A stretch of 39,389 nt of DNA, from sequence record MN067430, one strand, 5' to 3'. Source of the DNA: Escherichia phage vB_EcoP-Ro103C3lw. The notes below the pieces were generated by a model that saw nothing but the letters and a program-made list of their open reading frames with translations, searched no databases and had not been told where the DNA came from. The translations under genes were made by a program, and so were the position numbers. Position 1 is the first letter of the stretch. Every line of letters starts with the position of its first letter. Positions 2,561 through 6,510 of this stretch are shown one piece after another.

Positions 2561-5227
2561 ATGAGCGTCATTCAGCTTGAGAAGCATGACTTCTCGGACA
2601 TCTCCAACGCTATCGAGCCGTTTAACATTCTGGCTGACCACTACGGGCAGGACCTCGCAGTCAAACAGCTTCAGCTTGAGCATGAGGCATACACTGAAGG
2701 CGAGCGTCGTTTCATCAAGAATCTTGAGCGTCAGGCTGAGCGCGGGGGGCTGGCTGATAATCAGGTCGCAAGACCATTGATGCAAACTCTGGTCCCTAAA
2801 CTGGCGCAAGCCGTCAAGGAGTGGCACGAGACCCAAGGGTCAACCCGTGGGAAACCTCAGGTCGCCTTCCTGAAGCTGAGCACCGAGTCGAAACCTCGTG
2901 CGCTACTGGTCCAACCCGAGTCGGTGGCGGTCATCGTCCTGAAGATTGCGCTCAGTAAGCTGGTCAAGCCTGAAGGCGTACCGATAACGCCGATGGCCTC
3001 CGCGATTGGTCGCACACTGGAGGATGAAATCCGTTTCGGTCGCATCCGTGACCAAGAGCAAGAGCACTTCAAGAAGACCATCGCCGAGAACCTGAAGAAA
3101 CGCGCTGGCGTGGCCTACAAGAAAGCCTACATGCAAGCGGTCGAAGCCTCCATGCTGGACCAGAAGCAACTGGATGATGCGTGGGGGACTTGGAGTCCTG
3201 ACGAGGCGGTCCACGTAGGAATAAAGATGCTGGAGCTGCTGATTCAATCCACACAACTGGTAGAGCTGAAGCGACACAACGCTGGGAACGTAGCGTCAGA
3301 CGTCGAGATGGTCCACCTGTCAGACTTCTGGGCCAAGAAGATGGCTCAGCGAGGCTACAGCCTTGCGGGTATCGCTCCGGTCTACCAGCCGTGCGTCGTG
3401 CCTCCACGCCCTTGGAACTCAGTGGTCGGTGGTGGGTACTGGGCTAAAGGTCGCAGACCTCTCCCGCTGATGCGCTTAGGGTCGAAGGCTGCTATCGCTC
3501 GCTACGAGGAAGTTTACATGCCTGAAGTCTACGAGGCGGTGAACATCATTCAGCAGACACCGTGGAAGGTGAATAAGAAGGTGCTGGACGTAGTGAACAT
3601 GGTCGAGAAGCTGAACAATACGCCTATCGCAGACATCCCGCAGATGGACCCGATGAAGCCTGAGGAGTACGCAGGTGAGACCGAGGAAGAACTTAAAGCG
3701 TGGAAGAAAGCTGCTGCTGGAATCTATCGCCGCGAGAAGGCCCGACAGTCCCGCCGCTTGTCCCTGAGCTTCATCGTCGGACAGGCGAACAAGTTCTCTC
3801 AGTTCAAGGCCATCTGGTTCCCGTACAACATGGATTGGCGCGGTCGAGTCTACGCGGTCCCGATGTTCAACCCGCAAGGCAACGACATGCAGAAGGGTCT
3901 GCTGACTCTGTCAGTCGGCAAGCCAATCGGTGCGGACGGCTTCAAGTGGCTGAAGGTTCACGGTGCAAACTGCGCGGGTGTCGATAAAGTCACCTTCGAG
4001 GAGCGCATCAAGTGGGTCGAAGACAACCACGACAACATCCTCGCGGCTGCTAAGAGTCCGATGGATAGCATCGACTGGTGGGGCAAGTTAGACTCTCCGT
4101 TCTGCTTCCTCGCGTTCTGCTTCGAGTATGCCGGGGTCATGCACCACGGGCTGAGCTACTCCTGCTCACTGCCTATAGCGTTCGATGGGTCCTGCTCTGG
4201 GATTCAACACTTCAGCGCGATGCTCCGTGACCACGTTGGTGGACATGCGGTCAACCTAACGCCAAGCGGGAAGGTCCAAGACATCTACCGCATTGTGTCC
4301 GACCGGGTGGAAGAACAGCTTAAGGAACTACTGGTAAACGGTAGCGACAACGAAGTCAAGACCTTCGAGGACAAGAAGACAGGCGAAATTACTGAACGTC
4401 TGGTCCTTGGAACTCGTGAGCTGGCCCGTCAGTGGCTGACCTACGGGATGTCACGCACGGTCACTAAACGCTCGGTCATGACTCTGGCCTACGGGTCGAA
4501 GGAATACGGGTTCGCAGACCAAGTGTTTGAGGATACCGTGATGCCAGCGATTGACAACGGCAAGGGCGCGATGTTCACGGACCCAAGCCAAGCGTCCCGC
4601 TTCATGGCTAAGATGATTTGGGATGCAGTGAGCGTGACCGTAGTTGCTGCGGTAGACGCGATGAAGTGGCTCCAAGGCGCTGCTAAACTGCTGGCTGCTG
4701 AGGTCAAGGACAAGAAGACCAAAGAGGTCCTGAAGCCTTGCCTCCCGGTTCACTGGGTCACGCCTGATGGCTTCCCGGTCTGGCAGGAGTATCGCAAGAA
4801 GGACACCACACGTCTTGACCTGATGTTCCTCGGGACTTTCCGTCTCCAGCCGACAGTCAACAAGGGGTCGAGCAAGGAGCTGGACAAGCACAAGCAGGAG
4901 TCAGGCATCAGCCCGAACTTTGTACACTCACAAGACGGCAGTCACCTGAGGAAGACTGTGGTCCACACCCACCGCAAGTATGGCGTGATGTCCTTCGCAG
5001 TGATTCACGATAGCTTCGGGACCATCCCGGCTGACGCTGAGTTCCTGTTCAAAGGTGTCCGTGAGACGATGGTCGAGACCTACCGCGACAACGATGTGCT
5101 GCAAGACTTCTACGAGCAGTTCGCGGACCAGCTTCACGAGAGCCAGCGCGACAAGTTGCCTGAGCTTCCAAAGCGCGGTAAACTGAACATCGAAGACATT
5201 CTGTTATCTGACTTTGCATTCGCCTGA
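2561..5227 (+). CDS. gp1: Single-subunit DNA-directed RNA polymerase (T7 gp1 homolog)
   Basis: 888 aa; long conserved blocks versus T7 RNAP, e.g. WFPYNMDWRGRVYAVPMFNPQGNDM, HGANCAGVDKV, PIAFDGSCSGIQHFSAML, KRSVMTLAYGSKE, NFVHSQDGSHLRKTVV, ends SDFAFA. Confidence 0.97.
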   Translation: MSVIQLEKHDFSDISNAIEPFNILADHYGQDLAVKQLQLEHEAYTEGERRFIKNLERQAERGGLADNQVARPLMQTLVPKLAQAVKEWHETQGSTRGKPQVAFLKLSTESKPRALLVQPESVAVIVLKIALSKLVKPEGVPITPMASAIGRTLEDEIRFGRIRDQEQEHFKKTIAENLKKRAGVAYKKAYMQAVEASMLDQKQLDDAWGTWSPDEAVHVGIKMLELLIQSTQLVELKRHNAGNVASDVEMVHLSDFWAKKMAQRGYSLAGIAPVYQPCVVPPRPWNSVVGGGYWAKGRRPLPLMRLGSKAAIARYEEVYMPEVYEAVNIIQQTPWKVNKKVLDVVNMVEKLNNTPIADIPQMDPMKPEEYAGETEEELKAWKKAAAGIYRREKARQSRRLSLSFIVGQANKFSQFKAIWFPYNMDWRGRVYAVPMFNPQGNDMQKGLLTLSVGKPIGADGFKWLKVHGANCAGVDKVTFEERIKWVEDNHDNILAAAKSPMDSIDWWGKLDSPFCFLAFCFEYAGVMHHGLSYSCSLPIAFDGSCSGIQHFSAMLRDHVGGHAVNLTPSGKVQDIYRIVSDRVEEQLKELLVNGSDNEVKTFEDKKTGEITERLVLGTRELARQWLTYGMSRTVTKRSVMTLAYGSKEYGFADQVFEDTVMPAIDNGKGAMFTDPSQASRFMAKMIWDAVSVTVVAAVDAMKWLQGAAKLLAAEVKDKKTKEVLKPCLPVHWVTPDGFPVWQEYRKKDTTRLDLMFLGTFRLQPTVNKGSSKELDKHKQESGISPNFVHSQDGSHLRKTVVHTHRKYGVMSFAVIHDSFGTIPADAEFLFKGVRETMVETYRDNDVLQDFYEQFADQLHESQRDKLPELPKRGKLNIEDILLSDFAFA

Positions 5228-5240
5228 GGAGGCACTAACT

Positions 5241-5441
5241 ATGAAATTCGCACACAAGCAAACTGGCGTTAAAGGCGGTACTCAAATCGTGACTGTGACC
5301 GAGCACAACGGAAAGGGTCTGGCGAAGACCACGATTATCCCGACCGAGATGTCCAAGCAACTTAACGTCCCGTTCAAATGGCTGGTGCAGAAGGTCGAAC
5401 AGGCCCACGAACAGGCCCTAACCGAGGCAGCAACGAAATGA
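5241..5441 (+). CDS. Hypothetical protein, 66 aa
   Basis: SD aggagg 5 nt upstream of ATG 5241; no homolog recognised. Confidence 0.5.
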   Translation: MKFAHKQTGVKGGTQIVTVTEHNGKGLAKTTIIPTEMSKQLNVPFKWLVQKVEQAHEQALTEAATK

Positions 5442-5520
5442 CAGACCTTAAGTGGCTGGCCTTATGGCTAGCCTTCTTAGCAGTGTACATTTTAATCCAA
5501 CGCAGAAGAGGCTAATCACC

Positions 5521-5976
5521 ATGTTCAACCGTAAACTGAAAGCACGTATCGCATCTCTTGAAGCAACCGTCCAGCGTCAGGACCGCAACCTTGAGCTGGC
5601 TAACCGGGAGCACTCACGACTGAGGGCCAAGATTCAGAAGGCTGAAGAGAAACGTGAAGTCGACCCATTCCGTGTGAAGCGCATGGTCGGCCTGAAGTTC
5701 AAGGCGCTGTTCAATGGTCTATACCAGCCTACTGAGTTCAAGACCGGACCGGGGCCGTGTGGCAAGACAGTTACGCACTTCACCACGAGTCGGACCGAGC
5801 GTGAGCTGACCATCCACCAGCACCACACGGATGGCTCTCAGAAGGACTTCGAGTATCGACTGAGTGACATCGACGGTCGCATCCAGTACGACTACGAGAC
5901 CGTGCTAGTCTACGGAGAAGAGGCAGAACGGGAGCGAGCACACTACGTCTTCCTGAGACGTCAACGGTTCGCTTAA
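5521..5976 (+). CDS. Hypothetical protein, about 151 aa, with predicted coiled-coil N-terminus
   Basis: Open frame 5452..5976; ATG 5521 chosen as the most likely start (MFNRKLKARIASLEATVQRQDRNLELANREHSRLRAKIQKAEEKR); no homolog recognised. Confidence 0.5.
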   Translation: MFNRKLKARIASLEATVQRQDRNLELANREHSRLRAKIQKAEEKREVDPFRVKRMVGLKFKALFNGLYQPTEFKTGPGPCGKTVTHFTTSRTERELTIHQHHTDGSQKDFEYRLSDIDGRIQYDYETVLVYGEEAERERAHYVFLRRQRFA

Positions 5977-5994
5977 ACCCTCACTATAGGATTA
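5972..5994 (+). promoter_or_regulatory. Phage RNAP promoter (gene 1.1 position)
   Basis: gcttaaaccctcactataggatt; +1 G at 5989. Confidence 0.8.
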
Positions 5995-6062
5995 GACTAA
6001 AGGTCGCTGACTTCCAGTGGCCTTCATGATTAACCCTAAACTCAATCACTGGAGATTTAACC

Positions 6063-6242
6063 ATGTATCAGAACACCATCAACTTCGAGCGCATCCGTGA
6101 ACGTCAGCAGACTGAAGGATACATGCCTAAGGGCCGCAAGCTGAACAAGACCAAACGTGGCGGTGGCGTCAAGGGTGCTTTCCGCAACGCTGAAGGTAAA
6201 GACTCTCTGGTCAACCAAGAGAAGTATTTCGTAGGAGCATAA
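6063..6242 (+). CDS. gp1.1: gp1.1-like small basic protein, 59 aa
   Basis: KGRKLNKTKRGGG motif resembles T7 gp1.1 (KGRKLNKTKRD); not in the ORF track because it is under 60 aa. Confidence 0.7.
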   Translation: MYQNTINFERIRERQQTEGYMPKGRKLNKTKRGGGVKGAFRNAEGKDSLVNQEKYFVGA

Positions 6243-6246
6243 CGCT

Positions 6247-6510
6247 ATGGGCCGACTTTACAGTGGCAACCTCAACGCTTTCAAAGCAGCGTGTAACAGG
6301 CTCTATCAGCTAGACTTCGCTGTCATTTCTCAGGAGTTTCAAGACCTTGCGTCACGCCAAGAGTGCATGAGACTCAGGGTCGAGGACCGGGCTGGTAACA
6401 TATTCGCTCTTGAGTCCTTCGCACACTACGACGAAGACGTACTGTACAATACTGCAACCGACTTCCTTAATGGTCTCGCTGACCAACTCGACACATGGAG
6501 CAAATCATAA
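6247..6510 (+). CDS. gp1.2: gp1.2-like inhibitor of host dGTPase
   Basis: 87 aa; MGRLYSGNLNAFKAA...RLRVEDRAGN...HYDEDVLYN matches T7 gp1.2 as recalled. Confidence 0.85.
   Translation: MGRLYSGNLNAFKAACNRLYQLDFAVISQEFQDLASRQECMRLRVEDRAGNIFALESFAHYDEDVLYNTATDFLNGLADQLDTWSKS

Follow-up and report, generated by a model that had tools for sequence, protein, structure and literature searches.

In phage T3, the order of features behind the RNA polymerase gene is gene 1, promoter phi1.05, origin, gene 1.05, promoter phi1.1, RNase III site R1.1, and gene 1.1, and the product of gene 1.05, gp1.05, has also been named in phages phiYeO3-12, phiSG-JL2, and EcoDS1. T7 holds only the promoters phi1.1A and phi1.1B in this interval and no such gene; an earlier note on the DNA studied here had named promoters and the primary replication origin for T7. 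We analyzed the corresponding interval of Escherichia phage vB_EcoP-Ro103C3lw (record MN067430), whose complete genome of 39,389 nt is referred to as the window throughout. The phage is a Kayfunavirus, published as a new species of this genus infecting Escherichia coli O103 that produces Shiga toxin (STEC O103), with 25 of its 51 coding sequences being hypothetical (PMC8303462). In the region considered here, its nearest DNA relatives are Enterobacter phage IME278 (89%), Klebsiella phage P7124, and other Kayfunavirus phages.

The interval contains a tightly packed cassette of three genes, the last and largest of which, ORF B, is a homologue of T3 gene 1.05 and lies at the same place as the T3 gene, between gene 1 and the phi1.1 promoter. 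The earlier note had placed two open reading frames (ORFs) between gene 1 and the gene 1.1 promoter. Both are confirmed at this position, ORF A with 66 aa and ORF B with 151 aa; a third gene of 25 aa between them, termed mini-ORF in the following, had been overlooked. The window thus reads gene 1, ORF A, mini-ORF, ORF B, promoter, gene 1.1, and the parts of the cassette are as follows.

5228 to 5232, plus strand: Shine-Dalgarno sequence GGAGG of ORF A, 8 nt 5' of the ATG (sequence reading)
5241 to 5441, plus strand: ORF A, 66 aa, ATG start (PHROG 8082; substitution pattern)
5438 to 5515, plus strand: mini-ORF, 25-aa single-pass membrane peptide MTDLKWLALWLAFLAVYILIQRRRG (conservation; substitution pattern)
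5506 to 5511, plus strand: Shine-Dalgarno sequence AAGAGG of ORF B, within the Arg codons of the mini-ORF (sequence reading)
5521 to 5976, plus strand: ORF B, 151 aa, ATG start, homologue of T3 gene 1.05 (PF25755; PHROG 8103)
5557 to 5655, plus strand: hypervariable coiled-coil cassette, ORF B residues 13-45 (drop of identity compared with the core)
5656 to 5913, plus strand: conserved all-beta core, ORF B residues 46-131 (invariant G76, G78, C80, Q100, and F110; position 102 is His or Cys)
5914 to 5973, plus strand: C-terminal helix and basic tail, ORF B residues 132-151 (model helix 132-150; variable or absent elsewhere in the family)

The ATG of the mini-ORF overlaps the stop codon of ORF A as ATGA, the gap between mini-ORF and ORF B amounts to 5 nt, and each of the three genes has a Shine-Dalgarno sequence, which in the case of the mini-ORF is GAGG, 10 nt upstream of its start. 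These overlaps and short spacers suggest translational coupling within the cassette. The frames evolve as coding sequence: The ratio of nonsynonymous to synonymous differences (pN/pS) is 0.21 for ORF A, compared with 1.85 and 1.69 in the other two frames, 0.24 for the mini-ORF, compared with 1.38 and 0.88 off frame, and 0.27 for the beta core of ORF B. Judged by these ratios, the mini-ORF is under purifying selection.

ORF B matches the Pfam family PF25755 (Phage_T3_1_05) with 93.3 bits (E-value 9.1e-27; gathering cut-off 27 bits), its residues 55-125 covering positions 2-73 of the 73-position model, and PHROG 8103 with an E-value of 6e-53; the public record annotates it with exactly 151 aa as Ro103_9. 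Its relatives comprise 246 protein clusters and, according to tblastn, 289 phage records, including T3 and phiYeO3-12 (annotated there as gene 1.05) as well as phages of Klebsiella, Pectobacterium, Pseudomonas, Aeromonas, and Sphingomonas; gene 1.05 records also span Ralstonia and Delftia phages. A profile search of 1.84 billion representative proteins returned 144 gp1.05 members only, and members found by protein-cluster searches are typically located on phage-sized contigs of about 40 kb. Two homologues with a membrane anchor (P0400 and P0409), attributed to Klebsiella pneumoniae and Escherichia coli, are located on contigs of about 41 kb. These contigs most likely represent T7-like phage genomes within bacterial assemblies, and the homologues are then not bacterial genes.

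A homologue directly follows gene 1 in T3, phiYeO3-12, SH1, phiEap-1, PYps49T, the examined Erwinia/Pantoea phages, and all Kayfunavirus relatives; this comparison of gene position was made for the phages listed, and the proteins of KP32-type Klebsiella phages are counted as family members by sequence. Yersinia phage phi80-18 carries its homologue in the early region amid genes without assigned function, and that of Sphingomonas phage Scott immediately precedes the DNA polymerase gene. The Kayfunavirus homologue is already labelled gp1.05 in the annotations of IMM-002 and EcoDS1.

ORF A, 100% identical to the protein annotated in the public record as Ro103_8, encodes a basic soluble protein with a pI of 9.7. 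It matches PHROG 8082 with residues 1-66 of 66 (E-value 7.1e-40, 135.9 bits) and is an ordinary end-to-end member of this family, for which neither a Pfam model nor a solved relative exists. There was no match for ORF A in Pfam, NCBIfam, or PADLOC, and a profile search against PDB sequences gave nothing below an E-value of 0.9. The 149 protein clusters of ORF A consist mostly of proteins with exactly 66 aa (a few have 65-84 aa), an allele of 71 aa is found in 11 of the fetched loci, and about 220 phage records contain the gene, with few exceptions those of Kayfunavirus-like phages. Two records labelled Enterococcus match ORF A as well, and a fragment in PQ520215.1 (2,571 bp, "Enterococcus phage IME_EF3") is 87% identical to the C-terminus of ORF B; these Enterococcus-labelled records are probably mislabelled or contaminated Kayfunavirus fragments.

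The designation of ORF A and ORF B as unknown therefore has to be split: They have no known function, but both belong to known families, PF25755 and PHROG 8082, respectively for ORF B and ORF A. The same is true for the possible lineage-specific insertion. ORF A and the mini-ORF are indeed restricted to the Kayfunavirus lineage, but ORF B is an optional occupant of this locus in the Studiervirinae, and since all three genes belong to families known from related phages, the cassette is not a new insertion. The GC content of the cassette equals that of the remaining genome; judged by base composition, a recent foreign insertion is rejected.

The mini-ORF, scored by regular-expression scans of the fetched loci, is present in 27 of the 27 Kayfunavirus loci examined and is always 25 aa long, two copies differing by D3Y or D3H. 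It accompanies ORF A with the ATGA overlap in every one of these loci, and the divergent Kosakonia phage Kc166A also has it, in the form MSDSLWLVIWLALLVVYIIRQRRRG and with an overlap of 8 nt. All eight loci which lack ORF B have kept the mini-ORF. Since the peptide persists under purifying selection where ORF B is lost, we infer that it has a function of its own. Its hydrophobic helix has a mean hydropathy of 1.74 over 19 residues and is followed by the tail QRRRG. A membrane anchor was defined by such a helix, hydrophobic over about 17-20 residues and with the basic residues gathered on its C-terminal side, and both the mini-ORF and the anchored gp1.05 homologues show this pattern; from QRRRG and the positive-inside rule, the C-terminus of the peptide is predicted to be cytoplasmic.

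Almost all deposited Kayfunavirus annotations omit this conserved gene. The exact peptide is annotated in a single public record, IMM-002, where it is named DUF2842, a label that is not supported: A Pfam scan of the mini-ORF gives only DUF5325 with an E-value of 0.17 and 12 bits, compared with a cut-off of 25. In the same IMM-002 region (L002, 1674-1870), short ORFs, two of them on the opposite strand, carry the names "DUF2842", "metal resistance protein", and "AK812_SmicGene8738". As Ro103_8 and Ro103_9 are numbered consecutively, which suggests that the record of vB_EcoP-Ro103C3lw omits the peptide, the mini-ORF is apparently unannotated there.

The N-terminus of ORF B is well defined. Its relatives share the start MF(F)N whichever upstream frame is open, and in relatives with a spacer of 4 nt the frame upstream of the ATG is closed, so that the conserved start corresponds to position 5521 of the window. 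IME278, IMM-002, and SFP20 annotate the N-terminus 19-21 residues too long (MAGL...). These overlong versions are found at 3760-4278 in L001, 1764-2279 in L002, and 863-1375 in L004, and the extension (5452-5520 in the window) crosses the mini-ORF in a different frame. Homologues of ORF B in IME278, EV136_1, and TM1 are labelled "microtubule-binding protein, GAS" (PF13851), the name being attached to the ORF at 3760-4278 of L001 and to the cluster members P0493 and P0494. This label is not supported either: The match has 12.0 bits and an E-value of 0.14 (cut-off 32.3), and it is confined to the coiled-coil residues 4-46, which makes the label a coiled-coil artefact. Further names in this region of the databases call for caution, as RefSeq copies name the T7-type RNA polymerase (RNAP) "N4-like RNA polymerase", and SFP20 names gene 1.2 "DNA ligase".

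An AlphaFold2 model of ORF B, based on an alignment of 129 sequences, reached a predicted local distance difference test score (pLDDT) of 95.8. Helices at residues 2-43 and 132-150 flank six strands, which lie between residues 50 and 130. Modelled by itself, the core (residues 47-131) reached a pLDDT of 95.7 and a predicted template modelling score (pTM) of 0.81. The coiled coil which the earlier note had suspected at the N-terminus of the larger protein is supported, the helix 2-43 being continuous in the model and a single heptad register fitting it. The coil has a net charge of +7 and the C-terminal tail is basic; the conserved core is neutral (median pI 7.0, net charge 0).

Five residues, G76, G78, C80, Q100, and F110, are invariant in 129 of 129 gp1.05 sequences, and F73, G81, V84, K108, Y112, G119, and R120 are nearly so. 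ORF B of the window carries G76, G78, C80, Q100, F110, K108, Y112, G119, and R120. At position 102, 75 sequences have His, 42 have Cys, 9 (T3 among them) have Thr, and 3 have Tyr. This position co-varies with position 106, in that 72 sequences combine His with Ser or Thr and 31 combine Cys with Glu. The His-rich middle of ORF B pointed out earlier (TIHQHHTDGS) is present at residues 97-106, but it is mostly a Kayfunavirus trait; family-wide, only position 102 is constrained. According to the six-strand meander topology of the model, the loops 75-82 and 100-108 would lie at the same edge of the sheet.

The profile and structure searches called for by the earlier note found families, but none of known function. 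For ORF B, Foldseek against BFVD retrieved uncharacterised Autographiviridae phage proteins only, all of them family members, and a profile search against PDB sequences gave nothing but coiled-coil and transmembrane noise. NCBIfam and PADLOC had no meaningful matches for ORF B, and Pfam had no functional or enzyme family. The gp1.05 core is without a close solved structural relative. Weak structural neighbours of the core include the RNA-binding Hfq and the single-stranded-DNA-binding WYL domains of DriD and CapW. Sm/Hfq membership is rejected: The resemblance is one of fold class and no evidence of homology, profile comparison with Hfq yielding a probability of 0.05%. For WYL, neither a Pfam match nor a strong structural match was obtained.

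Throughout the family, the beta core is the constant unit, which occurs alone, behind a coil, or behind an anchor and a coil. The 144 representatives are distributed as follows.

Core alone, about 80 aa, as in T3: 72 of 144
N-terminal transmembrane helix, coiled coil, and core: 49 of 144
Coiled coil and core without an anchor (Kayfunavirus type): 16 of 144
Conserved motif not found: 7 of 144

The anchored type is found in KP32-type Klebsiella phages (as "fusion protein"), Teetrevirus SH1, Eapunavirus phiEap-1, Berlinvirus PYps49T, and one Erwinia phage. In SH1, phiEap-1, PYps49T, and the Erwinia phage, the anchored gene directly follows gene 1, and ORF A is missing. Of 48 anchored representatives, 47 carry more Lys and Arg C-terminally of the transmembrane helix than N-terminally, and the flank in front of the helix is short (median 2 aa); the positive-inside rule thus predicts a cytoplasmic location of the core. 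The mini-ORF has the form of this sister-genus anchor, with a short N-terminal flank, a helix, and then RRR, and it occupies the same position, but as a separate gene. It may derive from an ancestral anchor that was separated from gp1.05, or it may be a partner of ORF A unrelated to that anchor.

The coil of ORF B follows a different mode of evolution from the core. Within Kayfunavirus, residues 52-139 are almost invariant, while for residues 13-45 no fewer than five coil alleles are seen that are unrelated to one another. Where relatives share 85-91% of the core nucleotides with the window, nucleotide identity of the coil drops to 40-45%, and its synonymous sites are saturated (pS 0.74). Low identity together with saturated synonymous sites indicates that the coil is exchanged as a cassette and does not evolve by point mutation. 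Gene 1.05 is likewise listed among the dissimilar regions between close relatives in the Kvp1 genome paper (PMC2579914). The whole gene can also be lost: ORF B is cleanly absent from 8 of the 27 Kayfunavirus loci, where the promoter directly follows the stop codon of the mini-ORF, and a near-full-length ORF B match is found in about 92 phage records, compared with about 220 for ORF A. Being absent from these eight relatives and from T7, ORF B is dispensable.

The surroundings of the cassette bear on its expression and comprise the following features.

2561 to 5227, plus strand: gene 1, T7-type single-subunit RNA polymerase, 888 aa (ORF; RNAP annotation in close relatives)
5972 to 5994, plus strand: phage RNAP promoter, equivalent of phi1.1, predicted +1 at 5989 (exact 16-mer at 5976-5991)
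6000 to 6024, plus strand: 10-bp hairpin in the gene 1.1 leader (folding of 5992-6062; position of T3 R1.1)
6063 to 6242, plus strand: gene 1.1 (PF08200, E-value 3e-10; PHROG 4383)

The promoter core AACCCTCACTATAGGA has its first base at 5976, overlapping the stop codon of ORF B, and occurs in 12 copies in the window, compared with 0.22 expected by chance. A scan of the window detected no phage promoter core between 2474 and 5976, and on the plus strand between gene 1 and the cassette there is neither a terminator-like nor a sigma-70-like site. Having no promoter or terminator of its own, the cassette probably shares its transcripts with gene 1, made by host RNAP early and by phage RNAP from a promoter at 2474. 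An exact copy of the phage promoter core is located there, at 2474-2489, about 70 nt upstream of the start of the RNAP gene at 2561, which would allow the phage polymerase to transcribe its own gene together with the downstream cassette. T7 is not known to have a phage promoter ahead of gene 1.

Behind the promoter, the stretch 5992-6062 (71 nt), which contains the hairpin, folds at -16.8 kcal/mol with a z-score of -2.35. T3 annotates the RNase III site R1.1 directly after the phi1.1 promoter, which matches the position of the hairpin, a putative processing site in the window. An Rfam search of the whole window found no family. A T7-type primary replication origin consists of a phage promoter and, behind it, an AT-rich stretch serving for initiation; in the window, the promoter at 5972-5994 is present, and GC content downstream of it is 0.49-0.52 (windows in 5900-6299), i.e., not AT-rich. 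The gene 1.1 leader also contains, at 6026-6056, GATTAACCCTAAACTCAATCACTGGAGA, whose first half resembles the T3-type promoter start ATTAACCCT and which is conserved in relatives; GATTAACCCTAAACTCAATCACTGGAGA may be a decayed second promoter, cf. the phi1.1A/phi1.1B pair of T7, or part of an RNase III site. Gene 1.2 (PF10922), encoding the dGTPase inhibitor, follows gene 1.1 at 6247-6510 and is thus two genes downstream of the cassette. In some close relatives (L022, 2067-2315; L024, 2066-2317), an unrelated ORF of 82-83 aa (MSRRWLFDAS.../MSERWLFDAS...) directly follows gene 1.1 and occupies the spot of gene 1.2. The spot of gene 1.2 looks like another swap-prone early locus adjoining the cassette.

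While identities and architecture of the cassette genes are secure, their role has to be approached by analogy. With its early position, its dispensability, its mosaic make-up, its restriction to phages, and its membrane-tethered relatives, the cassette has the profile of host-binding or anti-defence accessory proteins of the T7 group. We therefore favor, with about as much credence as doubt, the reading that the cassette would serve early in infection as an accessory unit directed against the host or its defences, its products acting in the cytoplasm, close to or at the inner membrane. The gp1.05 core would bind a conserved cytoplasmic target via its loop face (C80, Q100, H/C102, D104, and K108), coil and anchor would contribute avidity through oligomerisation and position the core at the inner membrane, and in Kayfunavirus the anchor-like peptide would have become a separate gene with a retained function of its own. 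Several points weigh against this reading. A literature search on gp1.05 yields annotation tables only and no functional work, and Pfam, NCBIfam, and PADLOC hold no functional family for the cassette proteins. The suggested role in host takeover or defence draws on the analogy to T7 early proteins and on dispensability, not on evidence for a target. The idea of a split anchor draws on position and architecture, transmembrane segments being too short and simple for a homology comparison of peptide and anchor. Finally, the constant co-occurrence of ORF A and mini-ORF would fit an independent two-gene module equally well.

Such a module, serving, e.g., superinfection exclusion or membrane perturbation, would have no link to gp1.05, and the position of the two genes upstream of ORF B would be incidental. 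The pair occurs jointly in all 27 loci and in Kc166A, both genes persist where ORF B is missing, and genera with an anchored gp1.05 lack ORF A. Small early phage membrane proteins can moreover inhibit host envelope processes, as described for Gp11 of a Staphylococcus phage (PMC11237401). Against independence, the peptide shares position and predicted topology with the gp1.05 anchor of the sister genera, immediately 5' of a coiled coil, and on balance we consider a separate two-gene module rather unlikely.

An extended version of the host-directed reading regards gp1.05 as an undescribed kind of early effector. It would combine a beta fold absent from solved structures with a two-state site, formed by Cys80 and either His102 and Ser/Thr106 or Cys102 and Glu106, and would act at the inner membrane, on its cytoplasmic face; the Kayfunavirus anchor would have split off as a 25-aa peptide with its own function, either acquired or kept, and the coil alleles would be ancient and recombining. 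If true, the peptide would be among the smallest conserved early phage genes, and the coil alleles would be the part that is seen by host defence or that sets partner specificity. In this full form the proposal is doubtful and is put forward tentatively.

A link of gp1.05 to replication was considered as well, as a factor binding nucleic acid at or near the primary origin, with anchored versions possibly tethering replicating DNA to the membrane. Gene 1.05 of T3 and phiYeO3-12 overlaps or borders on the annotated primary origin, the homologue of phage Scott lies next to the DNA polymerase gene, the weak structural neighbours include Hfq and the WYL domains, and both coil and C-terminal tail are basic. 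The core as the conserved part is electrically neutral, however, so that nucleic-acid binding is not favored; eight of 27 close relatives and T7 replicate without the gene, and the phi80-18 homologue resides among early genes without assigned function. We thus regard a replication factor as improbable.

An enzyme or nucleotide-binding domain, with the stretch beginning at G76 (GPGPCGKT) as Walker A motif and C80/H102 as catalytic pair, is very improbable. GPGPCGKT does fit the pattern GxxxxGK[ST], C80 is invariant, and His is the most frequent residue at position 102. However, of 129 sequences no more than 101 have Lys at position 82 and no more than 68 have Thr at position 83, KP32-type proteins read GPCGLHV, and the loop joins two beta strands of an all-beta domain, while P-loop NTPases need a strand and a helix; the lack of conservation of K82 and T83 together with the all-beta architecture leads us to reject a P-loop. 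The frequent replacement of His102 by Cys or, as in T3, by Thr argues against a Cys-His catalytic pair, and neither Pfam nor NCBIfam indicates an enzyme family.

It is hardly credible that mini-ORF and ORF B are translated as one anchored protein via programmed frameshifting or stop-codon read-through, in spite of the single-chain anchored homologues in sister genera and of the rare AGA Arg codons in which the mini-ORF ends, 5 nt before the start of ORF B. The spacer measures 4 nt or 5 nt depending on the relative and places ORF B in the +1 or -1 frame, never in frame; with the frame relation not conserved, a fusion by either mechanism is rejected. There is no canonical slippery heptamer (X XXY YYZ), and ORF B has its own Shine-Dalgarno sequence and the conserved MF(F)N start. 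That the frames are untranslated and arose by chance in regulatory or origin DNA, as the equivalent T7 interval with its promoters and primary origin might suggest, deserves practically no credence in view of substitution patterns that follow the reading frames, lengths largely conserved across hundreds of phages, a Shine-Dalgarno sequence per gene, Pfam and PHROG matches, very confident structure models, and a GC content like that of the rest of the genome.

Taken together, the finding is real and ordinary in kind: known families of conserved hypothetical proteins in a published genome. Its new points are modest, comprising the unannotated 25-aa gene, the three-way architecture of gp1.05, the coil cassette, and a core without a close solved relative, and the current understanding of T7-like phages is unchanged until a function is found for the cassette. 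Gene 1.05 is one of the few widespread early genes of the T7 group without an assigned function, and a confident model, a map of architectures, conserved loop residues, and natural knock-outs in the form of relatives lacking the gene are now at hand as resources. The misannotations "microtubule-binding protein" and "DUF2842" as well as the overlong N-termini of ORF B are corrected. As Kayfunavirus phages, including this STEC O103 phage, have been proposed for biocontrol, host effects of their early genes are practically relevant.

Among known systems, the small early host-takeover proteins of T7, gp0.4, gp0.6, gp1.2, gp2, gp5.5, and gp5.9, provide a functional analogy: They are likewise small, mostly dispensable, encoded in the early/middle region, and present or absent between relatives, while the cassette proteins have no sequence or structural similarity to them. 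The anchored proteins of KP32-type phages, SH1, phiEap-1, and PYps49T share with ORF B the PF25755 core with a coiled coil in front, at a core identity of about 30-40%. Their transmembrane helix is part of the same chain of 164-193 aa, and ORF A is missing upstream, whereas the peptide of the window is separate and in another frame. Gp1.05 of T3, finally, has 90 aa and comprises little more than the core; its gene has a separate promoter in front, phi1.05, and a start that is overlapped by the primary origin. Compared with it, ORF B of the window has an additional coiled coil of 45 residues and a C-terminal helix, lacks a promoter of its own, and carries His102 where T3 has Thr.

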